A stretch of DNA of 64,000 nucleotides from Acutalibacteraceae bacterium (GCA_045633485.1 JAZQYL010000022.1:1235-65234), one strand, 5' to 3'; shown: positions 5,725 to 64,000, counted from the first letter of the stretch. Notes: a model not told the origin generated them from the sequence alone. Made by a program: numbers and translations.

Positions 5725-5753
5725 AATTTTATATTATTTAAAGGATGATTTTA

Positions 5754-6683: not shown

Positions 6684-6695
6684 AGGATTTTTACC

Positions 6696-8158: not shown

Positions 8159-8159
8159 T

Positions 8160-33212: not shown

Positions 33213-33213
33213 A

Positions 33214-34362: not shown

Positions 34363-34368
34363 ATTAAA

Positions 34369-35412: not shown

Positions 35413-35423
35413 AAAGCGCCTCC

Positions 35424-36416: not shown

Positions 36417-36432
36417 TAGTAGTTACTCCAAA

Positions 36433-46300: not shown

Positions 46301-47959
46301 ACCTTTGCCCTTAGCAGCAAGCAATTCACCATCGTCTTGTGAAATAGAACATACCGCAAGTGTCGCATCTCCAACATTCATTTTAATATCGCCGGATACA
46401 TTGTTATAAATTATAATACCTGCAGCGCCTTGCTGTTGCGCAATCATTGCCTTTTCTTCAAATGTGTTTGAACCACGGCGAACAAGCGCAATCTTACCCT
46501 CTACATTCATGCCTGTATAGTCGGCACTACGGCCAACGCCGGGTATTAACACATAATCAATCTTTATGGATTTTTTATCACCGAGTAAGGAATCGTAAAA
46601 ATTGTTTTCTTCTGCGGAACCATTTGTCGATTCAACAAAGTAAATAATTTTATTATCAAATTCAATATATGGTGTTTCTGCGCCGGCAATAGAAGCTACC
46701 GACATAACGCCGTCATAGGTTGAAGGCGAGCCAACAGTACCGGTATCGGGATTAGAGGTAAGACCTAAATTACCGTTCTTTTCTGAGCCATATGCTGAGC
46801 TATAACTGTTAGAAGCCGCTACAACCATACAGATACCAGAATCGCGAAGCTTATCATATATTCCGTCAACCGCTTCTTCATCGCTTTCACGGCTGAAACC
46901 ACAAGCAGTACCGATTGACATATTAATAACATCAACGCCCAAAACAATGCAGTCCTCAAGAGCAGCTAAAATCCAAGCGGTACGTGCGGTATCCATAACA
47001 TCGGAAAATATCTTCATGGATACAAGTTGAGCGTTAGGAGCAACGCCTCGTATTGTATCATCGTTACCAACAATTACACCCGATACATGAGTACCGTGAT
47101 TGTTATGTGTTGAATATGCATCAGAATCAACATCTGCATAGTCAAAGTTATATGGGATTTTTTCGTTTATATAAACATCATCAACCGTAAGTCCGTCTAA
47201 TTGCTCGCTTGCCACAGTATCCTTAATAACTGCAGCAACATCATCATATGTAAGACCCAATTTTTTGCTTGTAAAATTATCTGTCGAAAACGCAGTATGA
47301 TTTGAATCTATACCTGTATCAAGCACAGCAACAACCATACCTGAACCATCGTAACCCGAATCAGAGCTATCAAAAATGCCGGTATCAAAAACGTCAACGG
47401 CGTTTTCAACAAGTTCTGTTTCACAAGTATTGTATTCCTCGCCAACAATTATGTTCATATCGTCGCTTATGGAATCACAAATTTTCTCAAAGTCAGAAGC
47501 TTTAATAAGAAGCTCAAAACCATTTATTATAGTAGAATATTCTTCGCCTGTTTTATAAGAAATGTTTTTCTCATCAAGTATAGCAAGCACCGACTCCTTA
47601 CCATTGGCAAGAGACTGCTTTGCCACTTTAGCGTAATCACCATTTGAAGCAAAGTCTGATAAGCTCATTGTTTTATCAGTACCCTCATAAACATCAATAA
47701 CAGCCTTATCACCTGTTGTTATTATTACGGAAATTTCGTCATTGTCATTAATTGTTTCAGGCAATTGATAAACTTTCGTATCATCAAAATACTTTGAATA
47801 ATCTAGCGCTATATTATCTATTTTTTTAATATCGGAATTATAAGATTTATCCGATAATGCATAGATGCTCGACATTGGTAGTGATGCTGCCGCTATCACA
47901 ACAGACAATACTGCGGCTGACATACCTTTTAATAATTTTTGTAATTTTAAGCACTTCAT
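40322..47959 (-). CDS. Giant (2545 aa) membrane-anchored S8 subtilisin-like cell-envelope protease with PA domain, Ig-like domains, about 800 aa of BspA-type leucine-rich repeats, a TM helix and a Lys-rich periodic tail
   Basis: Signal peptide. Catalytic triad contexts VAVLDTGID (about 47320), HGTHVSG (about 47090) and SGTSMACP (about 46135). PA-like insert KIALVRRGSNTFEEKA...GAAGIIIYNN. Big_2-like segments at about 43930-44520. LRRs at 41460-43860. TM at about 40832-40900. Confidence 0.85.
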   Translation of the reverse strand: MKCLKLQKLLKGMSAAVLSVVIAAASLPMSSIYALSDKSYNSDIKKIDNIALDYSKYFDDTKVYQLPETINDNDEISVIITTGDKAVIDVYEGTDKTMSLSDFASNGDYAKVAKQSLANGKESVLAILDEKNISYKTGEEYSTIINGFELLIKASDFEKICDSISDDMNIIVGEEYNTCETELVENAVDVFDTGIFDSSDSGYDGSGMVVAVLDTGIDSNHTAFSTDNFTSKKLGLTYDDVAAVIKDTVASEQLDGLTVDDVYINEKIPYNFDYADVDSDAYSTHNNHGTHVSGVIVGNDDTIRGVAPNAQLVSMKIFSDVMDTARTAWILAALEDCIVLGVDVINMSIGTACGFSRESDEEAVDGIYDKLRDSGICMVVAASNSYSSAYGSEKNGNLGLTSNPDTGTVGSPSTYDGVMSVASIAGAETPYIEFDNKIIYFVESTNGSAEENNFYDSLLGDKKSIKIDYVLIPGVGRSADYTGMNVEGKIALVRRGSNTFEEKAMIAQQQGAAGIIIYNNVSGDIKMNVGDATLAVCSISQDDGELLAAKGKGTLKISRKQTSGPFISDFSSWGPTPDLKIKPEITAHGGSILSSITGGSYDRLSGTSMACPNYAGVVVLLRQYVVENYPEIADDNQAVNTMVNCLIMSTADIALAKNGLPYSVRKQGAGLANLTNSIKSPAYITVKDEDGEITDKAKLELGDDPRKSGEYTMTFTINNTAKHAVSYDIDAYVMTEGVSDTKTAAGETTITEEARLLDGAKVKVVAINGKKSNKNTVRVKKNGQTEVTVKITLGKEDKEYLDKSFENGMYVEGFVTLEAKSGTKVDLNVPYLAFYGDWTQAPLFDLTYYDTNADELDDGIDEEDKTKADAYATRPVGGVSDDYVSYLGSYYFLQDPDDMVISANENYVALSNQVGTIHSLRFVWAGLLRNAAKIEITITDDITGDVVFEKVENDIRKSYSDGGASIYPSNVKIEFDTTEYNLENNSEYTVRLVGYVDYGDGGLQTNKNNVFEFPLVADFEAPTITDVEYRYEYDKTLKKNRLYADVMIYDNHYAMCSQIGYVTEEADADGNVGPAMKTLEQYMTPVYSERNDTTKVTYELTDYIYDIKNNATTKNTFVINAYDYALNYATYELSLPDDFTDFYFEGVEDGITLSPNEVYTLEPVIVPDTEWAELLEYSSSKPSVVRVVNNKLVAVKSGNAIIKAQDPLNNKSITFNVTVLEKGDDGYRRYDKPVADVFTLDGFYTNKAYYILENEDKKLGDTGSTNFFEGNYKLEMYPSEEVALNFSLDSFFKNDTSVSFESSNENIVKVDNSGLVTAQAEGFASITVKVLLDDKSTYYSETVNVEVKDPYVTTGASLTHYYGNGGLVNIPEDLSLTQIGQFAFSNFEYIMKTEEELAFDDAETSKAWFIGDNTITKVVIPEGVESIASYAFANLTALEEVVFPSTLESIDYGAFYGCTALQKITFSGENNLKIINQNAFENCDLRDTLKLPSVCVISDYAFAGNQKLKGIELGENLYSVGQYAFAGCKKLKDVKIDAKKVKYGPYAFTSCETLKEFYVNSSVLPEGMFYECDDMKKLTIGPDVNDIGVFAFRDTKISEFEIEKGNKNFKAHDKAYILSSDGKKLIAVSPLIEGEFTYDNIGGKKVNEIAKGAFSHNQKITSVLMEKVTAIGEYGLASNEGLISVSLGELKEIGDYAFFETSITTMPNLDKKVKIGKYAFSFTKLTSVTIPDKMEIAEGTFSECVDLTTVVIGDDVKIGKYAFSMDKDRAFKVEMYMNGEQKLFRYVFSSPLISLTIGKNAQIGENAFSNAASLETVTLGEGAKLEKMAFYNTSSLKNIDLSKVKEIGDYAISGDVYYACLDENMTVAAVNSNGYYHYTYHGPQITNADISSAETLGEYAFSYCRQLVQVELSDDIKEIKPYTFAGCDALKSINLSKVETIGEYAFMECGLETLDVSATENIDKYAFVSNRLLKTVKFCEKTEQIGEGAFSYCDPLDIVDNLNCVENIGDYAFAYTAITSADLTAAVNIGRNVFIKETLTPFKVVLGKDIEKIADNPFAMCKLEPFSTTQKQKVNGKEKEVTVYNYEISDTVFVIEGSLYCMNEKGMELITYSGTNNNDVVIADDTVRITAYAFAGSDVVRVKMPFSTTAIGHKAFYDCNMLDMVTFGSHTVPNFEEEFDPSYYGSFENIPGTGDFGTYTDYDGNEVQINGLGIIPFFMWNATGEMYSNVFYGATFVDYVGKVENKLTMVRPINGVGYDSFICNQYFDLVIDGPAAPDDVAVDAINAIKAIPERVSYDDKGLVESARAAYSKIATLEQQSLVKNYSDLVSAEQRIKALDPDAQKNEETNDNKEGFNIGILVLIIAIFATVVLAAILLIKKFKQHIVKFTKPVCDKISALVSPLIQKISKFIKPILNKIVVFCKPVTDKMAAFCKPIFKSTAKILKPIFAKVISVIKISIAFVAKLVVKIFVACKVFFVKIFNVIKPFLIKWTKIIVQQVVKIAKLIFTKVISFVKFLFSKISAFVKNIKQKKHHKEEVLENETEN
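40325..40825 (-). repeat. 167-aa cytoplasmic tail built from about 11-residue Lys/Ile/Phe/Val periodic units
   Basis: KPILNKIVVFC / KPVTDKMAAFC / KPIFKSTAKIL / KPIFAKVISVI / KIFVACKVFFV / KFLFSKISAFV and similar. 35 Lys in 167 residues by my count, with almost no acidic residues until the last 10. Confidence 0.75.
41460..43860 (-). repeat. Protein-level BspA-type leucine-rich repeat array within the protease
   Basis: Dozens of about 23-aa units of the form ...I.IP..V..IG.YAF..C..L..V... (for example IGQFAFSNF, IASYAFANLTALEEV, IDYGAFYGCTALQKI, IGEYAFMECGLETL). Confidence 0.7.
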
Positions 47960-48145: not shown

Positions 48146-48574
48146 ATGACAAAAGAAAAGACTGTTTATTTTCGTAAAATATATAAAATTCTGCTAAGTG
48201 CGTCGATTATTATTGCCGGAATAAGCCTTATAGTCGGATGTGTTACAATATATTTTTCAGGCAACGGATATTCAAGACAATTAGTAGCAAGCACATTTTC
48301 CAAAATTAACATCCCCGTTTATTTGTGCTTGGCGCTAATTATAGGTGATATTATTTGGGAGTTGCTTTCGCCAACCGACAAAGATTTTAAATCGGTTAAA
48401 AAAATTAAGACCGAGAACAAACAACCCACAGATAGCAAACACCTTTTTATTATTAAGCTTTGTATTCTTGGTGTTGCCATAATCGCCTTGATAGGTGGTT
48501 TCTTAGCGGGTGGTTATAACGATGTTCTAACAAAAGCAGTTAATATCTGCACCGAATGTATCGGTCTTGGTTAG
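48146..48574 (+). CDS. Small polytopic membrane protein ending in a CxxC motif (CD1871A-like)
   Basis: Three hydrophobic segments. The C-terminus NICTECIGLG carries the CxxC at 48548-48559. It lies directly upstream of the 4Fe-4S membrane protein. Confidence 0.5.
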   Translation: MTKEKTVYFRKIYKILLSASIIIAGISLIVGCVTIYFSGNGYSRQLVASTFSKINIPVYLCLALIIGDIIWELLSPTDKDFKSVKKIKTENKQPTDSKHLFIIKLCILGVAIIALIGGFLAGGYNDVLTKAVNICTECIGLG

Positions 48575-48585
48575 GGAGTTGTATT

Positions 48586-50046
48586 ATGAATAAAATAATT
48601 GAAAAAATAAAAAAACTCAAACCCACAAGACGAAAAATAATTCAACTTTATACAGCACTACTTTTTAATGTGAATTTTAAAGGTTTTGTTTCGGGAAATA
48701 TTTATCAAGGCAACACAAAAATCGCCTGTATTCCAGGACTAAATTGCTATTCATGTCCCGGTGCCGTAGGTGCCTGCCCATTAGGCTCACTACAAGGCTC
48801 ATTTAGCGCAAACAAAAGTACATTGTTTTATGTGGGCGGTATATTGCTTCTTTACTCAATAATGTTTGGAAGGTTTGTTTGCGGTTGGCTTTGTCCGTTT
48901 GGACTTATACAAGAGCTCATATACAAAATCAAAACTCCAAAACTTAAAAAGAATCGAGCAACAAAAATATTATCATACTTTAAATATATTATACTGGCAT
49001 TTTTTGTTTTTATAATTCCTATTGCTTACGCTTTAAAAGATACTCCCTTCCCTGCTTTTTGCAAGTACATATGCCCGGCTGGAACACTTGAAGGCGGATT
49101 AAGTCTTCTGGCGAACAAAGTAAACGACAGTTATTTTTCAATGCTGGGTCCAATTTTTACATGGAAATTTTTATTACTTATAAGCATAGTTGTGGCTTGT
49201 ATATTTATTTTTAGAATGTTTTGCCGTTTTATTTGTCCACTTGGCGCTTTATACGGCTTGTTTAACAAAATTTCTATTTTTGGAATTAAACTTGATAATA
49301 GTAAATGTATTAACTGTAATTTGTGTAAAAACAAATGCAAAATGGACATTACCCATGTAGGCGACAGCGAGTGTATAAGTTGTGGCGAATGCATTGATGT
49401 TTGCCCTACCGATGCTATTGTTTGGAAAGGAATTAAAAAGAATAAAATTTCGACAGATGATATAATATCCCATAAAAAATCAAGAATAATTACACGAGCG
49501 ATATCTACAGTTTTAATGGTTGCCATTATCGTTACATCGTCAATTTATTTTTGGAAAGACAGTAGTACCAAAACAAATTACGGTACAGAGATTGGTGAGT
49601 TGTGTTACGGCGCTGAGCTCCCTGTTGTAACACCGGACGGTGTGAGTGATAACACAATTAATCCTGCGAAAACAGGCAAAATTACGATAATAAACTTTTG
49701 GGGAACTTGGTGTACTCCTTGTGTGAAAGAGCTTCCCTATTTCGACCAAATTGCAAGTGAATATACAGACGAAGTAACGGTTGTAGCGATTCATTCAAGC
49801 GCCAGCAAAGAAACCTCTACTGAGTATGTTAAAACACATTACCCCAACAGTAAACTTGTTTTTGCAAATGATATTCCCGATGAAAACGATGTATTTAATG
49901 GAAAATATTATTTAAATCTTGGTGGAAGCGGCGCATACCCATATACCGTAATAATCGATCAAGAAGGCGTAATACGTCAAATATTTGTTAAGGCTTTACA
50001 CTACGAAGATCTTAAGCAATCGGTGGAAAGTATATTAAAAGACTAA
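48586..50046 (+). CDS. NapH/MauN-like membrane polyferredoxin fused to a C-terminal TlpA/ResA-type thioredoxin domain
   Basis: CYSCPGAVGACPLG, FVCGWLCPFG, FCKYICPAG and FCRFICPLG; two ferredoxin motifs, CINCNLCKNKC and CISCGECIDVCP. These are followed by an extra TM helix and then INFWGTWCTPCVKELPYF. AGGGAG RBS precedes the ATG at 48586. Confidence 0.75.
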   Translation: MNKIIEKIKKLKPTRRKIIQLYTALLFNVNFKGFVSGNIYQGNTKIACIPGLNCYSCPGAVGACPLGSLQGSFSANKSTLFYVGGILLLYSIMFGRFVCGWLCPFGLIQELIYKIKTPKLKKNRATKILSYFKYIILAFFVFIIPIAYALKDTPFPAFCKYICPAGTLEGGLSLLANKVNDSYFSMLGPIFTWKFLLLISIVVACIFIFRMFCRFICPLGALYGLFNKISIFGIKLDNSKCINCNLCKNKCKMDITHVGDSECISCGECIDVCPTDAIVWKGIKKNKISTDDIISHKKSRIITRAISTVLMVAIIVTSSIYFWKDSSTKTNYGTEIGELCYGAELPVVTPDGVSDNTINPAKTGKITIINFWGTWCTPCVKELPYFDQIASEYTDEVTVVAIHSSASKETSTEYVKTHYPNSKLVFANDIPDENDVFNGKYYLNLGGSGAYPYTVIIDQEGVIRQIFVKALHYEDLKQSVESILKD

Positions 50047-50047
50047 C

Positions 50048-50088
50048 AAAAAAACACAAACAGCAATTAATTGCTGTTTGTGTTTTTT
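50048..50088. terminator. Bidirectional terminator between convergent units
   Basis: Stem acacaaacagcaa / ttgctgtttgtgt, loop ttaa, flanked by an A-run and a T-run. Confidence 0.8.
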
Positions 50089-50095
50089 AAATTGT

Positions 50096-51676
50096 TTAGA
50101 AATAAACAAGTGGGCCTTGATTAATGTTTTTGTCAGCACTACTTGGCTTATCCTCAGGAACTAGAGGTTCATCAGGTTCTTCTGGAACAACAGGTTCATC
50201 GGGTTCTTCCGGAACCTTAGGTCCTAAAGTCACATTCCAACCATTAAGATATTGCATCAGTAAACCGTAATCTTTATTATTGATTGCCTTATCATCATTA
50301 ACATCGGCTGTTTCGGTAATAATTTCAACATCCCAGCCGTTAAGATATTGCATCAACAAACCTAGGTCCTTATTGTTAATGTTTCTGTCGCCGTTTATAT
50401 CGCCGATTTCAAAGGGCGCTCTTACAAATCCACACACATTGCAGGTTGTATCAGCATTGTCATCATATACGTGAGCATCGGCATCAACCGATATGATAAC
50501 GTCGGCTTCGCGTGATAATTCTTCATTACATACTGTACAGTATACAACCATATCACACAATCCTTCGTTTGTGCAGTTTGCAGGAGTTTTAATCTCCTGT
50601 GTGGGCGCACCTTCGGTATGAGGTAATACATCGGTAATAACAACCTCACGAGATATTTCCTCGCCACATACTGTGCAAATGATTATATTTTCATAAGAAC
50701 CGTTTTGTGTGCAGGTAGCTGGAACCTCTTTTTCTTTGGTTGGTGCGCTTTCTGTGTGTTTAAAGAAACACATTGCTGTCACATCTTCATCATAATAACA
50801 AGCAAATAACCATGCGTCATCTGAATCATAAATAAAAGCATCCTCGCCACTATACCATCTGTTAGAATCACCGACTTCTTTGAAAATTTCAATCAAATCG
50901 ATGGTAAGCGGATAATAAAATGACGGTATTGTACCGGTTTCATCATCGGTAAGCGCATCTAAATATTCATACAAAGCAGCAGTGTAATCAACCTTGCGTG
51001 TTACCTTGTTGTCATCATCGTAATATACAGCCGACACTTTACCATTTGAAACCATACTATAAAGCGAAATCATATATTCATCATGTAAATTTGCGAAAAG
51101 CACAGGGCCATTCTCATCATTAAGATGATAGCATCCGTCACTGCCTAAAACAGCATTATCTATTATTTCATCTTCAAAATCAATGTAATTGTCAGAAAGC
51201 GACTCAACATCTACATTAGATGGCATTGTGAATTTTTTAGGAGATTGAACGTTTTGGTAAATTTCCCACGGTATTTCGCCACTTAAATCAAGGTCTGTGC
51301 GTGTAACTGTAATGGTAGCCTCAGCAAGCTCTGAATTTAAAGCAATCATTATTGCCTGACCTATATCATTACATTCCCAAGTTATGGTAGTGGCGTTTAC
51401 ATTATCTGCAGTAGGGTCATTTTGAACCCACATATCAATATAACTTACAATACCAATAAGACCATCATTTGTTGTAATGGTGTATTCGCCAATATTGGTA
51501 GGTGCAAGTATGTATACTGTATATTCAGTTGAAGTTTCTACAGTATACACGTTAGTGCCTTCCGTTAGTACAGTCGAACTAATAGTATAATTTTCTTCCG
51601 CCATAACCGTCATTGGCAATAATAAAAGGGCCATTATTAGCATTGCGCTTACAGCGATTTTAAATATTTTCTTCAT
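50096..51676 (-). CDS. Secreted dockerin-bearing protein with Cys-rich modules and the shared YH-NGP/WL-C-YY domain
   Basis: Signal peptide; the domain CYHLNDENGPV...AWLFACYY; modules PATCTQNG...CTVCGEE and PANCTNEG...CTVCNEE; a canonical two-segment dockerin (about 50222-50412); a P/E-rich tail. Confidence 0.7.
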   Translation of the reverse strand: MKKIFKIAVSAMLIMALLLLPMTVMAEENYTISSTVLTEGTNVYTVETSTEYTVYILAPTNIGEYTITTNDGLIGIVSYIDMWVQNDPTADNVNATTITWECNDIGQAIMIALNSELAEATITVTRTDLDLSGEIPWEIYQNVQSPKKFTMPSNVDVESLSDNYIDFEDEIIDNAVLGSDGCYHLNDENGPVLFANLHDEYMISLYSMVSNGKVSAVYYDDDNKVTRKVDYTAALYEYLDALTDDETGTIPSFYYPLTIDLIEIFKEVGDSNRWYSGEDAFIYDSDDAWLFACYYDEDVTAMCFFKHTESAPTKEKEVPATCTQNGSYENIIICTVCGEEISREVVITDVLPHTEGAPTQEIKTPANCTNEGLCDMVVYCTVCNEELSREADVIISVDADAHVYDDNADTTCNVCGFVRAPFEIGDINGDRNINNKDLGLLMQYLNGWDVEIITETADVNDDKAINNKDYGLLMQYLNGWNVTLGPKVPEEPDEPVVPEEPDEPLVPEDKPSSADKNINQGPLVYF

Positions 51677-51708
51677 ATAATTTACTCCAAAAAATTATAA
51701 TATGTGCT

Positions 51709-52743
51709 TTATGCATATTTAATTAAAAATTCAATATCTGTTGCTTTATACTGATTACGCTTATCAGGCTTAATTCCTACCGTGATTCTTAAAACATCAC
51801 CTTTATTAACCTCGACCTCTACATAGGTACCAAGATCATCAGACTTAACCTCGCCTTCTTCTGTTGCTTCAGTACTTCTTAATGCAGAATTACGAAGATT
51901 TTGAACCATTAATTGACCTTTTTTTGTTCCACTCAAAAGATAAAAACGAATAGTTCCATCTTGTTTTGCTGTGTACTGATATACATAACCTTGATTATCG
52001 TCATCTTCTAAATGACGCTTAATACTTTCATCAATCGATTTTATCTGTGCCGGAGCATCAATAGTTCCGAGTTCAGCTTGGAAAATAACACTAAAAGTTT
52101 CAGGTGCGGAGCCAGCGTTACCAAACTCAAGCATAATAAACTCATTGGACATTGCATCGCTTTCTACGAAGAAGGTTAATTTACCATTGTTTGCCGTATG
52201 TTTTTCACCATTATAAACAACATATGCATTGGGACTATTAATGATTAAAATTCTATTGGCAGCACCACGAACCTTATAAAACAATGATTTGCCTGCCGGA
52301 ATTTCATGTGTTAAAAATGTTCCATCCTCGGAAAGGAATGCTTCATACGCGGTATCGGTCGTTTCACCATTACCGCTTCCAACTTGAGGTGTGTCGGGTA
52401 TTTCAGGTGGTGTCTGGGTATTGTTGGTAAAGTCGTTATTGTTATCATTGTTGTCGGAATTTTCGACATCACCATCAGAATTATTGTTGCTATTTGAATT
52501 ATTGTTCGAATTGCCTTGTTGACCACTTTCTGTGGTATCGGACGTTTCATCAAGAAGAGATTCAAGATTACTTTCGTTATCATTTATAATATCAACACTA
52601 TCATACGTAATACTACCGGTGGATGATGTGCTTAAATAATCGTCACCTTGATTACCGCCAATTTTACGGCAAGATGTCAATGATAAAACAAAACATAATA
52701 TTAATAAAAACGCAACAAATTTTTTGCATAAATTTTTATTCAT
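51709..52743 (-). CDS. Hypothetical lipoprotein with an Asn/Ser/Asp-rich linker
   Basis: Lipobox LTSC; low-complexity NSNNNSNSNNNSDGD...; beta-rich C-terminal part. Confidence 0.5.
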   Translation of the reverse strand: MNKNLCKKFVAFLLILCFVLSLTSCRKIGGNQGDDYLSTSSTGSITYDSVDIINDNESNLESLLDETSDTTESGQQGNSNNNSNSNNNSDGDVENSDNNDNNNDFTNNTQTPPEIPDTPQVGSGNGETTDTAYEAFLSEDGTFLTHEIPAGKSLFYKVRGAANRILIINSPNAYVVYNGEKHTANNGKLTFFVESDAMSNEFIMLEFGNAGSAPETFSVIFQAELGTIDAPAQIKSIDESIKRHLEDDDNQGYVYQYTAKQDGTIRFYLLSGTKKGQLMVQNLRNSALRSTEATEEGEVKSDDLGTYVEVEVNKGDVLRITVGIKPDKRNQYKATDIEFLIKYA

Positions 52744-52768
52744 TTGGAATACCTCTTTTATGGAAAAG

Positions 52769-53173
52769 TTAAGCTATTGTATTGTTCAGAACAATAGTAT
52801 AAGATGTTAAATCATCTTCAAGATAAATCTCCTCTTCCCCTGTATATTCATAGCCTTCAGGGCAAGACATTACTGACAATTTGTGCTCGTCGGTTATCAC
52901 TGTGTTAAATACTGCAACACCGTTTTCATCCGTCATAGCAGGGGTGCAAACATCTTTGCAAATTTGTACCATAACACCCTTAACCGGACTATCGTTTTGA
53001 TCTGTAACAATAACCTCGAATTTAGAAGTTGTTTCATCATCGGAAGATGTTTCATCCTTGGCACTTTCGGACTTACTTACACCATCATAAATAGTCTTCT
53101 CATCATTGCCAAAGCAACCGCAAAGACAAAAAGTAAGAACTAAAGCCAAAATAAGAGCTATGAGTTTTTTCAT
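52769..53173 (-). CDS. Small lipoprotein with a prealbumin/CarboxypepD_reg-like beta-sandwich
   Basis: Lipobox LCGC; FEVIVTDQNDSPVKGVMVQI...DENGVAVFN pattern. Alternative start at 53182. Confidence 0.5.
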   Translation of the reverse strand: MKKLIALILALVLTFCLCGCFGNDEKTIYDGVSKSESAKDETSSDDETTSKFEVIVTDQNDSPVKGVMVQICKDVCTPAMTDENGVAVFNTVITDEHKLSVMSCPEGYEYTGEEEIYLEDDLTSYTIVLNNTIA

Positions 53174-53195
53174 GTATACCATTCCTTTTATATCA

Positions 53196-53804
53196 TTATT
53201 TTATATCACTTACATTTTTAATGGTTGTATGTTTATAGTTATCAGCCGTAAAGAAAGCAAATATTTTTTCAAATACACCTTCCTCAGTTATGCTACCCAT
53301 ATGCATAAAAGCGATTGAGCCATAACGATCTATAACAACCGTTGTCGGAAATCCTTGTAAAGAAAAAGCGGAAATCCAATCCTGCTCTCCCTTTATCATA
53401 GGCAATGTAATATTATTTTGTTCTGCAAATTTTTGAATATCTCTTTGCTCATCATCAGTCGGATTAATAGCGAAAACAATAACATCATCATCGTACTTAT
53501 CAGCTGCTGCTTGCAAATAAGGAAATTCCATCTGACAGGGTCCGCAGCCGACAAACCAAAAGTTAAGAACTATCGCTTCTTTTTCTTTGAAAACCTCAGA
53601 GAACTTATATGTGTTACCGTTTATATCCGTAAGACTGTGATTACCCATTAAATCACCAAGTTTATAATCACACAAATTAAGTGATGGATTATCCACAAGG
53701 CTGACTTTTCTTTCCGTAGCTTTACAACCAATTAACGAAAGAACAAGTAATAAACATATAATTATTGAAACAATTTTTAAAAAATATCTGTTCATATTAA
53801 TCAC
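53196..53804 (-). CDS. TlpA/ResA-family thiol:disulfide oxidoreductase lipoprotein
   Basis: Lipobox LIGC; LNFWFVGCGPCQMEFPYL with the CGPC at 53535-53546. A GTG start overlaps the upstream stop (GTGA); an alternative ATG is at 53795. Confidence 0.8.
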   Translation of the reverse strand: MINMNRYFLKIVSIIICLLLVLSLIGCKATERKVSLVDNPSLNLCDYKLGDLMGNHSLTDINGNTYKFSEVFKEKEAIVLNFWFVGCGPCQMEFPYLQAAADKYDDDVIVFAINPTDDEQRDIQKFAEQNNITLPMIKGEQDWISAFSLQGFPTTVVIDRYGSIAFMHMGSITEEGVFEKIFAFFTADNYKHTTIKNVSDIK

Positions 53805-55039
53805 TCAGCATAACAACACATAAATAACCATGCTATTTCTGCGTTTATATCTGTCATATTATTGCCCGAATCATCTTTAAACATATAGGTTGGGTTTTCA
53901 ATATCCCACCAACCAACATATTCACCACGTTGTTGAATAATATATTTTAAATCTTCTGTAAGTGGGTAAACACCATTGTCTTCGTCAACGTATTCTATAT
54001 ATTCAAGCAAGCACTCCGAATAACTTTCTTTTTTGATAAAGTTATTGTTTTCATCAAAGAAATACTTATTAACACCTGATCGATCAAGTATTGTTTTAAA
54101 ACAAGCAATGTACTCGTTATCCTCGGCAAGGCGAACAAGCACTATCGGTCCATTTGCATCGTTCAAATGATAATAACCTTCATCTTCATTCAAAACCAAT
54201 TTATATGCATCGGTTGAAGCGGTTAAATCAAATTCTTTTATTTCAAGATTATTAGGTAAAATATAGTCTTGAAGTTCAACCGATTTTTGATAGACAGTCC
54301 ATGGTTCATCTTCAACCGTCTTTATAGCATCTCCTAATCTATTAATACCAATAATACAGTTTTTCGCTTTTTTATCAGCATCAACACCAATTACAAACGT
54401 TGATGTACCAGTACCATTCGTACCAATCATACCTGATTTAACATTTATGGTAAATTTATTATCCTTTACCTCAGTTGCCGAATTGCTTTGAACAAAGTGC
54501 GGTGCGCCGTAATAGCCTATTGTAGCATTTTTGCCTTCCGGAATCGAAAACTCATAATTTCCTTCCTTACTAGGTGTGAAAAGGAAATAATTACGACTTC
54601 CCGACTTCAGTTCTACATAGGTACAACCCGTATCTATTGTATACGCATCATATTCATCAGAACCAACATATAATTTTTCGGGCTTCCCTGTGATTTTATA
54701 GGCTAAAATAACGTCAACCTCATTTTTTCGTGGAGAAAGCTTTATGTTTTTATCATAATGATATTGGATTTTCTCATCAGCAAACTGAAGAACAACATCA
54801 TACTTTCCGTTAATTAATGATTTTATTGCGGCACCCTGCTCGTTGCAAGATTGCATTGCAACCTGTTTACCATCCTGCATAAACTTCACTACTATACCTG
54901 ATGAATAAGGATTGCCTAGAGCATCCTTAACATTCACCGTGTAATCCTTTTCACCCTTGCCGCATGCGGCAAGAGTGAAAAGAGAAATTGTAATGATTAT
55001 TACTAGAAGGATTGAAATTAATCTTTTAATGCTTTTCAT
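53801..55039 (-). CDS. Lipoprotein: beta-sandwich, jelly-roll-like domain and the shared YH-NGP/WL-C-YY domain
   Basis: Lipobox LAAC after MKSIKRLISILLV. The start is 55039 or 55048; the track start at 55114 overlaps the upstream gene. C-terminal GYYHLNDANGPIV...AWLFMCCYAE. Confidence 0.55.
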   Translation of the reverse strand: MKSIKRLISILLVIIITISLFTLAACGKGEKDYTVNVKDALGNPYSSGIVVKFMQDGKQVAMQSCNEQGAAIKSLINGKYDVVLQFADEKIQYHYDKNIKLSPRKNEVDVILAYKITGKPEKLYVGSDEYDAYTIDTGCTYVELKSGSRNYFLFTPSKEGNYEFSIPEGKNATIGYYGAPHFVQSNSATEVKDNKFTINVKSGMIGTNGTGTSTFVIGVDADKKAKNCIIGINRLGDAIKTVEDEPWTVYQKSVELQDYILPNNLEIKEFDLTASTDAYKLVLNEDEGYYHLNDANGPIVLVRLAEDNEYIACFKTILDRSGVNKYFFDENNNFIKKESYSECLLEYIEYVDEDNGVYPLTEDLKYIIQQRGEYVGWWDIENPTYMFKDDSGNNMTDINAEIAWLFMCCYAE

Positions 55040-55061
55040 TTTTATCATACTTTCATTAAAA

Positions 55062-57908
55062 TTAATTGTTTGGACCAAGAGAATCATAATAATAACAAAT
55101 CTTGAGCCATGCATTTTCTACATCGTCAAACGTATATTTGTCCATAAGTTGTTGTAAAAGTTCAGCAAGTTCTTCATCAACAACTACACAACCATCAATC
55201 TCAGTTCCCGATTTGTCAATTTTACTTATATACTTTTTAATATCTTCAGTGCAATCATCACCATCACCATGATATCTACCGGCAAACACATCATCTAACT
55301 GATATATTTCAGCATTCTCATCATATTCGTCGCCCCAAAGTTTTTTAAGATATTCTCTTGTTTTTTCTATATCGTTGTCGTTCTGCTTCAAGTATGCCAA
55401 AATTTCACCATCAGTTTCTGACTTACTGAAATCAAAACCGCCCATTTGAATCATCTGAACAATAGATTGACTAAACACAGGTGTGATGCCTGTAAAGTCG
55501 GCATAAATCAAACTTCCATCTTTACTATCGTAATATTTTCCGTCTTTTAGTTTTGGTTTAATACCACCTGTGATAATATCATACATTGCATTACCGGTAG
55601 CGTCGGTATCATATGTGAAATATCCCGGAGCTGCCAATCTTAAAAGTTTGTATGTTGCACCAATAAATTCAACATCATAATTAATTGTACCGGTTGCATA
55701 TACATCCCAAAACGCCATATTTATATAATACGGTGTTCCGGCATTCATATAGTAAACCATAGAACAGTTTTTATCATCGGCAAACATTCTTTCGTCGTGC
55801 TCATATGTATATACGAGTTTACCATCTTTGTCAAAAATCCAAGCTTCAATGCCCTCTTCGTAATCGCTCTTTGAAGTAAAGCGATACACACCTGACTGTG
55901 ATGGCACAAACTCGGCAAACATACCTCTTGGAATTATAGCTCGGTCATAGTAGAAATTATTGCTCGGTATGTTTTTACCTAGAGTTACTTTAAAAGCACT
56001 AAATGTTGCAAGACCTTTAATTGGGTCTTCAAGCTGTGTAGCACCCTTACCATATGCTTGATAATACTTACACATCTTAAGCCATTCATTGTCATCATCT
56101 TCAAAACCTGCAACTCTAGCTACCTGCTTAAGCATCTCGGCTAGTTCTTTATTAACAGTACAAACACCATTGATTCTTGAGTTAGATGCATATGAGAAAT
56201 ATTGCACCATACCAAGACCATTTTCTTCCTTTTTGTCGTAAAGACTTACACCATCTTCATCGGCATCGCCTTCTGTAACGATTGTTTGAACCGATTCTTC
56301 CTCGCTAAATGGTGTAAAGCCCATAAGATCAGCAAGTAGTAAAGGACCGTTTGCGTTACCTACATGATAGTAACCATCATTTTCGTTAAATACTACATCA
56401 ACATAAGTGTACTTGTCGTTTTCATCAGCAACTGCTGCATAACGAGGTAGATATGTTGCTGTGTCGATTTGTGACTGATCTACAACACGCATATTATCAA
56501 TATAAACCGTATCATCTCCATCAGAACCATCTTCGTCCTTAAGGAAGCATAGCGCAATCTCGTACGTACCGTCTTTATCCGCAACGCAAGGATAACATGA
56601 TTTCCATTCTTCAGGAGAAGATACGCCGGATATTTGGAAAATATCCTCATCATTTACTATGACGTACATAATGTCGCAACCTAATTCCGATGAAACAAGG
56701 TAGTCAAATCCCACTGCCTGACCAGCTTTAAGTTCAATATCCGCATATAGGATTGCATATGAACTATCAATACCAGTATTTGAAGCTTTTACACAAGAGC
56801 GTCCGGATTTTTCGGAAATTATAAAGGGCCAGATAAACTCTGCATTTTCATCTTCGGTTTCGGGTCTGTAGTTCACGTTTATGTTACCTACATTTATTGT
56901 AGCAGCAATTTCGTCAGATGACGGCATTTCATAGGTTGGTTTAATTTGTGTTACAAGATCACCTATACCATTTTCACATACCTTTTGGTTATACGGATCA
57001 GCTGTAAAATGGTCAAACGCACATACCCAAGGGCGCTTACTTGTAATAGCGCCTGATTCTAATACGCAAATAACACCATATTGGTCAATAAATACCGATG
57101 TAGGATAACCTTGTACACTAAATGTGTTTGACCAAGATGCAGGACATGCAGCCATATTAAAAGAATAACCATATTGTTTTTGAAATCCGTCAACTACATT
57201 GTTGTCTTCCATTGGATTAATGGCGATGATTTCGACATCATCCTTATAATCGTTGTAAACTTCCTCCATAAGCGGGAATTCTTCTAAACACCAGCTACAT
57301 GTTGTATACCAAAAGTTAAGAACAACCAACTTTTTGCTCTTTAAAACTTCAGAAAGTTTGAGCTCCGTGCCATCCGGTTTCATGACTGTAAAGTCATACA
57401 TTACATCACCAAGTCCCAATGTGGCGGTTGAAATATCCTCGTCAGTAATAAGCGATGATGTTAAAACTATATCAACTTTATGATCGTTAAATTTATAAAA
57501 CTTTTCTACATTATAACCCTTTGGAACCGATTGTAATTCAATTACATAATTCGAACTTTCATCAAGATTAAATGTTGCTTCACCCTTGTCGTTTGTTTTT
57601 GTGTAGTCAATCATATCACTCATAGTATCATCGGTATATATGTAAGCATCAATGCCCGACATAGGCATACCGCCTGCAGTTTTAATACTCAATGAATAAA
57701 GAGTGTCACCTTGAGGTCTATCAAATTCAGTTTCATTATCCTTGCCTTTAAAATTGAATAAACCCGGAACAAAAATTACTCCACAAACTATTGCAACAAC
57801 TAAAGCCGCAGCAATAATTATAAAAAGAACTTTTTTAGCCTTTACAACTTCCCAAGCCTTTTTGAACAGTTTGCCAATTTTGTTAAAGAAAGCTTTTAAT
57901 TTTTCCAT
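55062..57908 (-). CDS. Signal-anchored 948-aa modular protein with a beta-sandwich, a TlpA-type thioredoxin, jelly-roll-like domains and two copies of the shared domain
   Basis: AGGAGG RBS precedes the ATG at 57908. The TM helix is VLFIIIAAALVVAIVCGVIFV. The thioredoxin motif LNFWYTTCSWCLEEF has its CSWC at 57288-57299. The shared domain occurs at about 56050-56385 and 55065-55545. Confidence 0.7.
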   Translation of the reverse strand: MEKLKAFFNKIGKLFKKAWEVVKAKKVLFIIIAAALVVAIVCGVIFVPGLFNFKGKDNETEFDRPQGDTLYSLSIKTAGGMPMSGIDAYIYTDDTMSDMIDYTKTNDKGEATFNLDESSNYVIELQSVPKGYNVEKFYKFNDHKVDIVLTSSLITDEDISTATLGLGDVMYDFTVMKPDGTELKLSEVLKSKKLVVLNFWYTTCSWCLEEFPLMEEVYNDYKDDVEIIAINPMEDNNVVDGFQKQYGYSFNMAACPASWSNTFSVQGYPTSVFIDQYGVICVLESGAITSKRPWVCAFDHFTADPYNQKVCENGIGDLVTQIKPTYEMPSSDEIAATINVGNINVNYRPETEDENAEFIWPFIISEKSGRSCVKASNTGIDSSYAILYADIELKAGQAVGFDYLVSSELGCDIMYVIVNDEDIFQISGVSSPEEWKSCYPCVADKDGTYEIALCFLKDEDGSDGDDTVYIDNMRVVDQSQIDTATYLPRYAAVADENDKYTYVDVVFNENDGYYHVGNANGPLLLADLMGFTPFSEEESVQTIVTEGDADEDGVSLYDKKEENGLGMVQYFSYASNSRINGVCTVNKELAEMLKQVARVAGFEDDDNEWLKMCKYYQAYGKGATQLEDPIKGLATFSAFKVTLGKNIPSNNFYYDRAIIPRGMFAEFVPSQSGVYRFTSKSDYEEGIEAWIFDKDGKLVYTYEHDERMFADDKNCSMVYYMNAGTPYYINMAFWDVYATGTINYDVEFIGATYKLLRLAAPGYFTYDTDATGNAMYDIITGGIKPKLKDGKYYDSKDGSLIYADFTGITPVFSQSIVQMIQMGGFDFSKSETDGEILAYLKQNDNDIEKTREYLKKLWGDEYDENAEIYQLDDVFAGRYHGDGDDCTEDIKKYISKIDKSGTEIDGCVVVDEELAELLQQLMDKYTFDDVENAWLKICYYYDSLGPNN

Positions 57909-57971
57909 AACTCCTCCTAAATAAAAGACAATTTTTTTGTGGTAGATACAATCCATCCAATTATTCAACTT

Positions 57972-58001
57972 ATTGTACCATACAATAAGCGTTATCGTCA
58001 A
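57972..58001 (-). promoter_or_regulatory. Candidate sigma-A promoter of the secreted-thioredoxin operon
   Basis: On the minus strand: TTGACG (58001-57996), 18-nt spacer, TGgTACAAT extended -10 (TACAAT at 57977-57972). Confidence 0.45.
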
Positions 58002-58019: not shown

Positions 58020-58056
58020 TAAAAAAATATCCCGATTTATTGCAAATCGGGATATC
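58020..58056 (-). terminator. Rho-independent terminator after the radical SAM gene
   Basis: Stem atatcccgattt / aaatcgggatat followed on the minus strand by a T-run. It overlaps the stop codon. Confidence 0.6.
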
Positions 58057-61734: not shown

Positions 61735-64000
61735 TTACTTTAACTCTACATCCCAACCGTTAACATAACGTATAAGTAATGCGTAGTCTTTATTGTTAAT
61801 TTGACCGTCACCCGTAACATCTGCGGCACTAATATCAATTTCTACGTCCCAACCATTAATATATTGTAACAATACACCAAGGTCTCGGTTATTAACAAGG
61901 GTATCACCTGTTACATCACCTTTAATAGAATCAGCAATTGTAATAACACCGTTTTGAGTTGCAAAAATAACATGTTCAAAATTTGAATTATAGACATCGT
62001 CATAATCATAATTTACTGTTATTGATGCATCTCCCGAAGGAGCACTGTTTTTAACCCTGAATATTAGCGTTGCTACTGCGCCGTTTGTTGTATTATCGGG
62101 ATTAATACTGTCAATCCAGTTTATAACAAGCGGATGCGCGGTAGCCGGTCCAAATGTTATGTCGGCAAAATCTTCTTCACCGATTGCAACAAATTCAAAT
62201 ACATTTGGATCATAATCTATGAGTAGTCGCATCGAGATTATACCCGGATTGTTTTGTAAATTAACCTTTACGCTAAAGATATCACCCCTGCGAACCGCTT
62301 TGTCTTCTATTACAAATATTGGCGAATTCTCATCAAAAGCGGGCGCATTTACCGTAATTTCAAAATAGGTTGAAATTCCTTGATAAATAACGGTAACTCT
62401 TTTTACACCCGGAGTGTTAGTATCAACACCAAGTGTTGTATAGCCATCGCTTATAATATTATGGGAACCATCACTATAATTTTGCTTTAAGGTAAGACCA
62501 TCAAGCACAAGTTCTTCGCCCAAATTATAAACGGTTTTGTTTGGCAAAGTATGAATATTAAGCGAAATATAAACAGCATCTTGAGGTTCTACAACAACTC
62601 GGCATTCTGCTTTATATTCTATACCATTATATCTTAATGTTGCCACAACCTTTGCCGTACCCTGTGTCACTGCAGTGATAACACCATCATGCACGGTAAC
62701 AACGTCATTATCGGTAGATGACCAAATAACGTCCATATCAACAGGTGTGGTAGCAACAGTTAGTGTTTCGGTGTTACCGATTGTTATAATCTTGCTGCTT
62801 GATGAAAGGGTTACCGTAGGTCTTGAAACGTTAATTTCAAAGCTTGTGGTAAATCCATCATAGTTAACATTAACTGTTTTCTGACCGGTTGATTCGGTGT
62901 TTGCCACCCAGGTAAATCCACTATCAATAATTTGTGTATGACCATTGCTGTACGTAGCCTTAATGGTAAATCCGGTAGTATCAATTCCATCACCGATATA
63001 ATACTCGGTTTTATCGGGCAGTGTCTCTACCGCAATGTCGGTAATCCAGATGCCTACAATAATATCAAAGCTTGTAGTAAAGTCACCGTACGTTACCGTA
63101 ATGGTTTGCACGTCTGCATTAAGCGAGTTATAACCCGATACGGTATAATCGGTAATAGCCACCTGTGAACCGTCGGTATAGGTTGCCTTAATCACAAGAC
63201 CTGTAAGGTCAAGCTCTTCACGGCAGTCATAAACGGTTTTATCGGGCATTGTGTCTACAATAATACCGGTAAGTTTTGGTCTTGGGTCTACAACGTTTAC
63301 AGTAAAGGTTGAGCGCAAAGTATTGCCGTCGGCAGAAACCCACTCAACAGTTACGGTGCAAGCACCCTCTACACTGCTGTCAAAACCGCTTACTGTATAA
63401 TTTGTTACCTCTTTATATGAGTTATCGTAATAATTTACCTGCACGGTCATACCGCTAAGGTCTAGCTCATCACCCAAAACGTAGTCAAGCTTTGTAGGCA
63501 GATTTGTAATGGTAAGATTTTTATCATCACGTATGTGTAGCGTAAATTGATATGTAACACCGCTTGACGCCGTAGCCGTAATCACGGTATCACCGCTATA
63601 ACGCACATAAATGTCGTGACCATTAAAGCTGACGTTACCATTGTTTGCGGTAAGTGTAATAACGTCGGTGCTGTCTAGCGGATCGCTTTCAAACACAGCG
63701 CGGTATGTCTCGCCGCGGTCTATGATAATATACTTTTCTCCGCTTTCAAGCGCAATGCCGTTTGATGGCACGCAGTTATCTACAAACAAAAATCCGTACT
63801 TGTCGGCAAAGGTTTGCGCATAACTGCCGCTTTTACCAAAAATAGTTGTCTTTTTTGGGTAAGAAAATGCCGTTGTAGAAATGGTTGTAACCGACTCGGG
63901 AATAACAACCTCTAATAGCGAATAGTCGTTCATAAATGCCTGGCTACCTATTGTTTTAAGACCCTTTGGCAATACAACCTTTGCAAGCTTAGAGCAATCT
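61735..64000 (-). CDS. Surface protein with BspA-type LRR, Big_3-like and Big_2-like Ig domains, one cohesin-like module and a C-terminal dockerin (5' end outside the window)
   Basis: The frame is open to nt 64000; the track start at 63972 is a TTG inside an LRR unit (DCSKLAKVVLPKGLKTIGSQAF). Four units have the form LPxKTxYxxGEELDLxGL...TV. Confidence 0.7.
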   Translation of the reverse strand, partial: DCSKLAKVVLPKGLKTIGSQAFMNDYSLLEVVIPESVTTISTTAFSYPKKTTIFGKSGSYAQTFADKYGFLFVDNCVPSNGIALESGEKYIIIDRGETYRAVFESDPLDSTDVITLTANNGNVSFNGHDIYVRYSGDTVITATASSGVTYQFTLHIRDDKNLTITNLPTKLDYVLGDELDLSGMTVQVNYYDNSYKEVTNYTVSGFDSSVEGACTVTVEWVSADGNTLRSTFTVNVVDPRPKLTGIIVDTMPDKTVYDCREELDLTGLVIKATYTDGSQVAITDYTVSGYNSLNADVQTITVTYGDFTTSFDIIVGIWITDIAVETLPDKTEYYIGDGIDTTGFTIKATYSNGHTQIIDSGFTWVANTESTGQKTVNVNYDGFTTSFEINVSRPTVTLSSSSKIITIGNTETLTVATTPVDMDVIWSSTDNDVVTVHDGVITAVTQGTAKVVATLRYNGIEYKAECRVVVEPQDAVYISLNIHTLPNKTVYNLGEELVLDGLTLKQNYSDGSHNIISDGYTTLGVDTNTPGVKRVTVIYQGISTYFEITVNAPAFDENSPIFVIEDKAVRRGDIFSVKVNLQNNPGIISMRLLIDYDPNVFEFVAIGEEDFADITFGPATAHPLVINWIDSINPDNTTNGAVATLIFRVKNSAPSGDASITVNYDYDDVYNSNFEHVIFATQNGVITIADSIKGDVTGDTLVNNRDLGVLLQYINGWDVEIDISAADVTGDGQINNKDYALLIRYVNGWDVELK
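61738..61920 (-). other. Dockerin module
   Basis: GDVTGDTLVNNRDLGVLLQYINGW ... ADVTGDGQINNKDYALLIRYVNGW. Confidence 0.8.
61935..62322 (-). other. Cohesin-like module
   Basis: PIFVIEDKAVRRGDIFSVKVNLQNNPGIISMRLLIDYDPNVFEFVAIGEED...GAVATLIFRVKNSAPSGDASITV matches the cohesin pattern (a Gly-Asp strand, 'gi.a.q..i.yD..v'). Confidence 0.55.

Follow-up and report, generated by a model that had tools for sequence, protein, structure and literature searches.

A thioredoxin-centred gene cassette conserved in uncultured gut Clostridia and its possible role in thiol-disulfide exchange at the cell surface

Introduction

The extracytoplasmic thioredoxins of Gram-positive bacteria are known mainly from cytochrome c maturation, spore-cortex synthesis and oxidative-stress repair, all of which are CcdA-dependent. 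The lactococcal proteolytic system, which also operates at the cell envelope, comprises the S8 proteinase PrtP, the maturase lipoprotein PrtM and the Opp transporter; to our knowledge, thioredoxin coupling has not been described for PrtP/Opp systems. Among the envelope thioredoxins themselves, Etrx1 and Etrx2 of Streptococcus pneumoniae are surface thioredoxin lipoproteins that work with CcdA1/2 and MsrAB2 (PMC3914529), and the DsbD/ScsB relays run from a membrane transporter through a thioredoxin-like domain and an Ig-like domain with a Cys pair to the envelope clients (PMC3322552). Here we describe a cassette of six minus-strand genes, termed G1 to G6 in the order of transcription (57908-50096), that encode exported modular proteins built around two thioredoxin domains. 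It comes from an Acutalibacteraceae bacterium (GCA_045633485.1, JAZQYL010000022.1:1235-65234), and the whole 64,000-nucleotide stretch, from whose first letter all positions are counted, is hereafter called the window.

An initial annotation of this DNA had proposed that the six genes form an undescribed extracytoplasmic thioredoxin-centred operon, and the proposal stands, in that the genes prove to be conserved and a literature search of limited reach found no paper describing the cassette. The same search returned nothing on the CD1871A family, to which a neighbouring gene product belongs, and nothing linking dockerins with thioredoxins or NapH-like proteins with thioredoxin domains.

Gene order and conservation of the cassette

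Calling of open reading frames (ORFs) in the window recovered the six genes exactly as they had been placed earlier, with successive spacers from G1 to G6 of 22, -4, 22, 25 and 32 nucleotides (nt), so that the original description of gaps of at most 32 nt or overlaps is confirmed. In order, and all on the minus strand, they encode a 948-amino-acid (aa) protein with an N-terminal signal anchor (G1, 55062-57908), a 412-aa lipoprotein (G2, 53801-55039), a 202-aa lipoprotein with a single thioredoxin domain (G3, 53196-53804), a 134-aa lipoprotein with a single prealbumin-like beta-sandwich (G4, 52769-53173), a 344-aa lipoprotein (G5, 51709-52743) and a 526-aa secreted protein (G6, 50096-51676). 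The G2 start at 55039 is favoured over that of a longer ORF from 55114 because the orthologs measure 408-415 aa, and G3 starts at either the GTG at 53804 or the ATG at 53795.

We scanned one genome per GTDB species and obtained at least 121 loci with the cassette, of which 80, all from metagenome-assembled genomes (MAGs), were kept for analysis; their ORFs are naive longest-ORF calls, for which an antisense frame was sometimes chosen. The loci are labelled as Clostridia, mostly Oscillospiraceae/Acutalibacteraceae, and also include Faecousia, Fimenecus, Avispirillum and some Lachnospiraceae; the hosts, where stated, are goat, sheep, buffalo, deer and yak, with the gut as source. The order G1>G2>G3>G4>G5 recurs across the 80 loci where the flanks allow, all five genes being matched in 72 of them, and it holds while the flanking genes vary, with G5 too keeping its position. 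G6 is the variable member: it is absent in several close relatives of the L004 type, a group (L004, 5, 6, 10, 13, 17) in which G4 is duplicated. The neighbourhood check thus bears out the conservation of the set in relatives, and the six genes are best read as one conserved operon with a predicted core of G1-G5 and a variable outer G6.

The G2 protein alone has 1724 homologs in a collection clustered at 90%, with Clostridia MAGs as sources and the label ‘hypothetical’ on all the named ones. An exhaustive profile search (E<=0.001) gave, at a clustering level of 50% identity, 923 representatives of the G2-module family. In one set of loci (L048, L051-L053, L055, L058, L060, L061, L069-L072, L078, L082) the ORF at the G3 position is ~1050-1350 aa long and clusters with G2, and similar family representatives of ~1060 aa carry an N-terminal Redoxin domain together with the G2 module. 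In this same L048-L082 clade, G5 is replaced or joined by lipoproteins of 485-1402 aa, with repeated G5-like units in L069.

The thioredoxin domains

Searches with Pfam recovered Redoxin/AhpC-TSA domains above the 26.6-bit cut-off at aa 167-286 of G1 (50.5 bits) and aa 50-173 of G3 (53.6 bits), and the active-site motifs map to 57288-57299 for the CSWC of G1 and to 53535-53546 for the CGPC of G3, exactly as first reported. Their initial designation as TlpA-type holds at the level of the superfamily, the nearest solved relatives being ResA, the pneumococcal Etrx proteins (2yp6, 4hqs, 4hqz, 4evm) and StoA. It does not extend to any narrower class: the two domains score 76.1 and 75.3 bits with the NCBIfam ResA model against a cut-off of 170, and 30.3 and 46.6 bits (the latter for G3) with that of StoA against a cut-off of 210, and every NCBIfam equivalog or subfamily cut-off is missed by both. 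They are thus members of the TlpA/ResA superfamily and not orthologs of any characterised enzyme, and each has the other as its nearest paralog (35.6% identity, E=1e-31).

The active-site cysteines are conserved in 97% of the orthologs of G1 (C204/C207) and in 100% of those of G3. The motif is C[S/T]WC in 59 of the 83 G1-type domains, whereas all 78 G3-type domains have CxPC, which takes the form CGPC in 44. Both proteins display the W-C-x-x-C-type active site (CSWC, CGPC), and a G-Y-P-T in G1 and a G-F-P-T in G3 stand at the expected place of the cis-proline loop before the last strand, as read from the sequence only. A peroxiredoxin reading of the Pfam matches was rejected, since the active sites FWYTTCSWC and FWFVGCGPC have the thioredoxin CxxC and not PxxxT/SxxC; the Sco1/SenC reading was likewise discarded, with G3 reaching 19.3 bits against 22.8 and having CxxC, not CxxxC. 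The XX dipeptide influences the redox potential of such sites, which are CGPC in thioredoxin, the classical reducing motif, as opposed to CPHC, CGHC and CPYC in oxidases, protein disulfide isomerase and glutaredoxin. Judging by this dipeptide, G1 is expected to be the weaker reductant of the two, because its second X is aromatic and it lacks the proline found in G3.

The usual partners of ResA/TlpA proteins had been reported as missing, and the searches agree: the 34 larger ORFs of the window scanned against Pfam include no CcdA, ResB/C or Msr family and no peroxiredoxin gene. Similarly, the conserved neighbours in the 80 loci include no prominent CcdA, ResB/ResC, cytochrome or Msr genes, and no DsbB/VKOR-type reoxidant was seen in either the window or these loci.

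The associated modules

Beyond the thioredoxin domains, the products share several modules. The prealbumin-like beta-sandwich with which three of them were thought to begin is supported by profile comparison with hhalign, which links the N-terminal domains of G1, G2 and G4 (G1~G4 97.4%, G2~G4 97.3%, G1~G2 82.5%); Pfam gives weak SpaA, Big_1 and CarboxypepD_reg matches here, and the AlphaFold2 model of G2 agrees with a sandwich. This model (predicted local distance difference test, pLDDT, 84.7) has three domains: the sandwich (aa 30-115), a jelly roll resembling PPC and collagen-binding domains (aa 121-236) and an alpha/beta C-terminal domain, termed the C-domain, which spans aa 245-412 in the model and is delimited here as aa 238-412 (window 53804-54328). 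A Foldseek search with the full model matched the sandwich and the jelly roll only, the latter resembling collagenase PPC and collagen-binding domains (probability 1.0, E=4e-4) and also DUF3823.

The C-domain, of ~170 aa, recurs in G1, G2 and G6. The three-way sharing of this uncharacterised domain noted at the outset is therefore upheld, with the correction that G1 carries two copies. The similarity is evident between G2 and G6 (BLASTP E=7.6e-18), between G1 copy 1 and G2 (hhalign 97.8%) and between the two G1 copies (97.4%). G1 is composed of the sandwich (aa ~67-150), the thioredoxin domain (163-291), a region at ~300-500, C-domain copy 1 (~505-625), a beta region (~690-800) and copy 2 (~800-948). 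In G6, the G2-type module aligns by BLASTP over aa 42-297, with the C-domain slice aligned at aa 140-300 (window 50777-51259). When modelled alone (pLDDT 82; predicted TM-score, pTM, 0.79), the C-domain has no fold neighbour in the PDB by Foldseek (best E=0.72, TM<0.2), and it shows no significant sequence match in Pfam, NCBIfam or the PDB. Accordingly, it matches no described family by sequence in these three resources, nor by fold in the PDB.

Strongly conserved cysteines accompany these modules and occur in every copy of the C-domain: each C-domain copy of G1 has one pair (C583/C613 and C907/C938), with C438/C454 and others elsewhere in the protein; G2 has C343/C408/C409; and C72, C76 and C104 of G4 are conserved in 76-88% of the orthologs. 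The last two of G2 lie in its terminal W-L-F-M-C-C-Y, which corresponds to a tail motif W-[LM]-F-x-C-C-Y in the wider family. By comparison, the four paralogous copies of the C-domain have no conserved polar residue in common, which argues against a second enzymatic activity, and the modules other than the thioredoxins, namely the spacer sandwiches, the jelly roll and the C-domain, look non-catalytic. G5 is made of an Asn/Ser/Asp-rich linker and a C-terminal half, with almost no conserved Cys. It matches no family in Pfam, NCBIfam, PDB sequence or hhalign searches, as is also the case for aa 300-500 of G1; in the PDB sequence searches G1 gave thioredoxin matches only, and the G2 profile and G5 gave nothing meaningful. 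A grouping of G5, G1 aa 300-500 and G1 aa 690-800 as one PPC-like family was rejected on account of hhalign probabilities below 30%.

A further Cys-rich element is found in G6, where aa ~303-415 (50430-50770) consist of 2.5 repeats, each with 3-4 Cys, of a ~45-aa unit that follows the pattern H-T-E-x-A-P-T ... P-A-x-C-T-x-x-G ... C-T-V-C-x-E-E-[IL]-S-R-E. These repeats have no Pfam match and could be zinc-ribbon-like or disulfide-knot modules.

Gene fusions strengthen the tie between the G2-type module and the thioredoxin: 22 of the 56 longer family representatives combine the module and a Redoxin/AhpC-TSA domain in one chain. The other Pfam matches in these 56 are to Ig-like or prealbumin-type sandwiches, bar two one-off matches, and thioredoxin is the only catalytic-type partner found with the G2-type module among them.

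Linkage to a protease-transporter block

The best functional clue for the cassette, which the initial annotation overlooked, is its protease and Opp context. As had been noted, the operon converges on a polyferredoxin::thioredoxin gene, with which G6 has a bidirectional terminator in common (50049-50088; an 18-pair stem with T runs on each strand). This gene is the second of a plus-strand pair. The first (48146-48574), which overlaps the start of the second (48556-50046), specifies a CXXC membrane protein of the CD1871A family (31.2 bits with NF040920, whose cut-off is 32); this protein has three hydrophobic segments and, at its C-terminus, a CTEC tail. The second codes for a NapH-like protein with about four transmembrane segments, three CX3CP motifs, two 4Fe-4S motifs of the form CxxCxxCxxxC, a transmembrane helix at aa 311-329 and a C-terminal TlpA-like Redoxin domain with a CTPC. 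It scores 65.9 bits with Fer4_5 (cut-off 22) and 77.9 bits with the NCBIfam NapH model, below the cut-off of 213.05, and no Nap, Mau or Cco genes were seen near it in the window. The succession of iron-sulfur (Fe-S) domain, transmembrane helix and thioredoxin domain places the last of these outside the membrane.

Relatives of this polyferredoxin::thioredoxin are very numerous, and the CTPC is present in 16 of 20. Those of 640-680 aa (P0286, P0292, P0311 and similar) have two tandem external thioredoxin domains, with CTPC at aa 390 and 549 in P0286. We rejected an interpretation of the 650-680-aa forms as fusions with the CXXC protein, as there is no BLASTP similarity and a second thioredoxin domain accounts for the added length.

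Divergent from this pair is the first gene of a minus-strand block, which encodes a 2545-aa cell-envelope protease (40322-47959) with Peptidase_S8, PA and fn3_5 domains, BspA-type leucine-rich repeats (LRRs) and a C-terminal transmembrane segment. It is followed by a 433-aa lipoprotein gene without a Pfam match (39037-40338), always located between the protease and OppA, and by an Opp-type ATP-binding cassette (ABC) transporter operon (32211-39006) for an 857-aa SBP_bac_5 lipoprotein, two permeases and two ATPases. The last ~190 aa of the protease, past a transmembrane helix at aa 2359-2377, form a Lys-rich tail of amphipathic ...K-x-I-x-K-F-x-K-P-I... repeats and hydrophobic segments, which is an unusual cytoplasmic or membrane-surface tail. 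The 433-aa lipoprotein has 1781 homologs, of which the named ones are all hypothetical and one carries PF09479; Listeria-Bacteroides-repeat-like and GLUG-like stretches can be discerned by eye. The Opp binding protein (36433-39006, minus strand) is ~300 aa longer than a typical SBP_bac_5 protein, its Pfam match falling mainly at aa 471-749.

Across the loci, the cassette abuts the S8-Opp block or the pair in 42 of 80, in two configurations. In 22 loci the Opp operon lies directly upstream of, and co-directional with, the cassette; in 20 the polyferredoxin pair lies directly downstream and convergent, as here, with the S8 gene beyond it in 17. One contig holds a ~30-kb array made up of the pair, the divergent S8 gene, the lipoprotein gene, OppABCDF, a small ORF and G1, with G2-G6 after. 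The occurrence of two configurations at G2 identities of 47-83% suggests that the association of cassette and block, as seen in these gene neighbourhoods, is more than inherited order. The pair itself, earlier noted as context of the cassette, is not primarily a partner of the latter: its constant partner elsewhere (L083-L086) is a divergent block of S8 protease (~2400-2550 aa), lipoprotein (~440 aa) and Opp genes, and it stays with this block when the cassette is 300 kb off or not adjacent.

Two further observations pertain to these loci. In L002 and L031-L081, the Opp binding protein has 74-86% identity as against 47-62% for the G2 of the cassette in the same genomes. Wherever the cassette follows the Opp operon, a conserved ORF of 62-116 aa, absent in the window, intervenes between OppF and G1 (L085 18236-18424; L031, L032, L038, L041, L057, L064).

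Export, anchoring and transcription signals

Export signals were judged by inspecting the sequences. On this basis all six products have one, in line with the initial count of one signal anchor, four lipoboxes and one signal of the signal peptidase I type: G1 has a basic N-terminus and one transmembrane helix (aa 27-45), G2 to G5 have the lipoboxes LAAC, LIGC, LCGC and LTSC, respectively, and G6 has a type I signal (...VMA/EE). The thioredoxin domains of G1 and G3 are thereby predicted to lie outside the membrane, by virtue of the signal anchor and the LIGC lipobox, respectively.

G6 contains a type I dockerin at aa 425-478 (window 50243-50404; Dockerin_1 36.2 bits, cut-off 22.9) and, within it, a D-x-N-x-D repeat at each of aa 426 and 458. 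The dockerin that had been reported is thus present, although the protein does not end in it, as a 48-aa Pro/Glu-rich tail comes last. Classification of 42 G6 orthologs by regular expressions recovered a sortase-like xTGD sorting signal in 24 and two dockerin repeats in 7; several others have one repeat or a dockerin-like C-terminus, such that a dockerin is present in at least 7 and probably about 15. This variability of the C-termini points to G6 as an outward-tethered component with a tether that is interchangeable between lineages.

A candidate for the other half of the contact is found 4 kb upstream of the cassette, where a minus-strand gene (61735-63972) encodes an adaptor-scaffoldin-like 745-aa protein with three Big_3 domains, a Big_2, a Cohesin (aa 555-654; 36.0 bits, cut-off 24.1) and a Dockerin_1 (aa 684-738; 45.3 bits, cut-off 22.9). 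This protein might serve as the docking partner of the G6 dockerin. Of the cohesin-dockerin display that had been suggested for the system, what survives is therefore a G6 dockerin with a cohesin nearby; it would concern G6 only, and in some lineages only. A 623-aa protein at 13-1884 (plus strand) also bears a C-terminal Dockerin_1 (aa 558-612), which is its sole Pfam match.

Both transcription signals proposed ahead of the unit were located. A terminator-like hairpin on the minus strand (58026-58056; a 14-pair stem followed by a T run) ends the upstream radical-SAM gene and marks the upstream boundary of the unit. It is followed by a candidate sigma-70-type promoter on the same strand (57972-58001; TTGACG-18-TACAAT with an extended TG and 10/12 matches), which is supported by its position only, since matches of this kind are no commoner here than in shuffled sequences (53 versus 49.8 expected). 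An AGGAGG ribosome-binding site precedes the ATG at 57908. The upstream radical-SAM, exonuclease and BipA genes were rejected as members of the unit, being kept in the closest relatives only (12 loci). An Rfam scan of the window for riboswitch or T-box leaders yielded a tRNA-Pro as its sole match. Elsewhere in the window, a plus-strand sulfur amino-acid/one-carbon cluster (5745-10553) comprises a PALP enzyme, MTHFR, a cobalamin-dependent methionine synthase and a 196-aa ORF without a match; it probably has nothing to do with the cassette.

Discussion

Our preferred reading, held tentatively and at slightly less than an even chance, is that the cassette is a cell-surface thiol-disulfide exchange module, which probably works with the adjacent protein-foraging S8-Opp block. 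Its redox character is suggested by its domains, and we infer its activity, electron source, redox direction and clients from an anatomy, conservation, fusions and genomic linkage that are directly observed. In this reading, the proteins would form a surface assembly held by the transmembrane anchor of G1, the lipid anchors of G2-G5 and a wall or cohesin tether on G6, with the two ResA/Etrx-type thioredoxin domains of G1 and G3 as its likely catalytic parts. The assembly would perform thiol-disulfide exchange on proteins outside the membrane, with the beta-sandwiches, the jelly roll and the Cys-bearing C-domains gripping protein clients or relaying disulfides. Cytoplasmic reducing power might reach G3, and possibly G1, through the NapH-like polyferredoxin::thioredoxin and its CXXC partner, which would replace CcdA/DsbD. 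Because the cassette repeatedly adjoins the S8-lipoprotein-Opp block, the clients would most plausibly be disulfide-containing proteins dealt with by the foraging system, either exogenous ones that are opened before proteolysis or the Cys-rich protease/LRR protein itself.

A more ambitious form of this scheme, which we consider rather improbable, is a complete Fe-S-driven route, independent of CcdA and DsbD, to wall- and lipid-anchored thioredoxins that reduce disulfide-rich dietary or host proteins, with the S8 protease cutting these and Opp importing the peptides. The C-domain and the collagen-binding-like jelly rolls would then grip the clients in an extracellular ‘disulfide-opening’ step of protein foraging, a role that we hold to be just as doubtful.

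Several points weigh against the foraging-linked exchange module. The S8-Opp block is missing from about nine loci whose flanks reach at least ~5 kb in both directions, in one genome 300 kb separate it from the cassette, and one block has no adjacent cassette. All the genomes belong to one bacterial class, so that some of the synteny may simply reflect common descent. As the polyferredoxin pair tracks the protease block and not the cassette, casting it as the electron donor to G1 and G3 is guesswork, and the negative result for CcdA covers the window ORFs and the 80 loci, not whole genomes. Moreover, the Cys pairs of the C-domain could be structural disulfides, and the thioredoxins might then act as oxidases or isomerases on their own partners.

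This last point leads to an account that we rate as unlikely but worth serious consideration, in which the cassette is a self-contained oxidative-folding or isomerisation set: G1, G2, G4, G5 and G6 would adhere or bind by means of their beta-sandwiches and C-domains, and the two thioredoxin domains would only form, proofread or recycle the disulfides of these proteins. The two CxxC types, C[ST]WC and CGPC, do differ and would then constitute an oxidase/isomerase and reductase pair comparable to DsbA/DsbC or the actinobacterial MdbA, an assignment with an equally limited chance of being right. The conserved Cys pairs within each C-domain copy and elsewhere in G1, G2 and G4, the vicinal C-C tail kept in the wider family and the extra 3-4-Cys repeats of G6 would supply the substrates; the thioredoxin domain and the module often share one polypeptide; and several genomes hold the cassette without the protease block. 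However, such a set would leave unexplained the recurrent S8-Opp adjacency in two configurations, the window and the 80 loci show no DsbB/VKOR-type reoxidant for it, G5 is almost free of conserved Cys, and a dedicated pair of thioredoxins serving five proteins would be unusual.

The structural matches of both thioredoxin domains to Etrx (2yp6, 4hqs, 4hqz, 4evm) and ResA, together with a lipoprotein anchoring and surface exposure like those of Etrx (PMC3914529), can also be taken to indicate an envelope defence, whereby the thioredoxin lipoproteins maintain surface proteins in the reduced state or, after exposure to oxygen, repair Cys and Met that have been oxidised, with the other products as scaffolds. 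Such a function would be of use to an obligate anaerobe whose surface LRR proteins are of the BspA type and rich in Cys. Nevertheless, Msr, peroxiredoxin and CcdA are missing among the scanned window ORFs and not prominent among the neighbours in the 80 loci, and neither the persistent pairing of thioredoxin with the C-domain and binding-type sandwiches nor a wall- or cohesin-tethered G6 is explained by it; we accordingly see this defence as a minority possibility. A classical ResA/StoA role, in which the protein reduced is either apocytochrome c, in preparation for the attachment of haem, or one that takes part in spore-cortex synthesis, is very improbable. ResA (about 75-76 bits) and StoA (46.6 bits, G3) are indeed the best NCBIfam matches, but these scores fall far under the cut-offs of 170 and 210, and no ResB, ResC, CcdA or cytochrome genes were found among the scanned window ORFs or prominently in the loci. 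The gene for a SpoIVB-type S55 peptidase does lie near the cassette in about 10 loci; as it occurs on either side and in either orientation, this looks like backbone synteny, and we rejected the link to sporulation that it might suggest. The dockerin- or sortase-type anchoring of G6, in turn, points to the vegetative cell surface.

If the proposed link of the cassette with the protease/Opp block and the polyferredoxin is true, it would mean that strict anaerobes possess a new transmembrane electron route and that the extracellular digestion of proteins in the gut includes a redox step. On a more conservative reading, the results define a new domain family, for which thioredoxin is the sole catalytic partner to recur. 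The cassette would in any event be a fourth, widespread setting for Gram-positive extracytoplasmic thioredoxins, joined to a domain without a relative in Pfam, NCBIfam or the PDB.

Comparison with known systems

The Etrx proteins resemble the cassette thioredoxins in being Gram-positive, surface-exposed, lipid-anchored and TlpA/ResA-like, and in being encoded in small operons. The cassette differs in that no CcdA or MsrAB was found in the window or loci, in its two CxxC types and in the combination of thioredoxin, fused in relatives, with prealbumin-like sandwiches and the C-domain; further, the candidate conduit beside it is a polyferredoxin::thioredoxin and not CcdA. ResA and StoA of Bacillus subtilis are the closest relatives in sequence and structure, likewise membrane-anchored and extracytoplasmic and with the WCxxC and, as read from the sequence, a putative cis-Pro-type loop G-[YF]-P-T. 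Relative to the ResA/StoA-CcdA systems, however, the domains do not reach even half of the NCBIfam cut-offs, genes for ResB/C, CcdA or cytochromes were not detected, and the architecture and partners are entirely different.

With the DsbD/ScsB relays the cassette has only the relay concept in common, inasmuch as the membrane part here is NapH-like with Fe-S clusters and without a DsbD/CcdA-type domain, the Cys-bearing domain is a new alpha/beta fold in place of the Ig-like DsbD-alpha, and the parts are spread over several lipoproteins. The neighbouring polyferredoxin, in turn, shares the Fer4_5 CX3CP motifs, the about four transmembrane segments and the two-cluster ferredoxin domain of NapH, MauN and CcoG; it is set apart from them by an extra transmembrane helix, an external TlpA-like thioredoxin domain and a score of 77.9 against 213 bits. 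Finally, the adjacent block parallels PrtP/PrtM/Opp in having an S8 + PA + fn3_5 protease, a lipoprotein and Opp genes in the same direction, whereas it has no PrtM-type peptidyl-prolyl isomerase, its protease bears BspA LRRs, and it is coupled to extracytoplasmic thioredoxin components.

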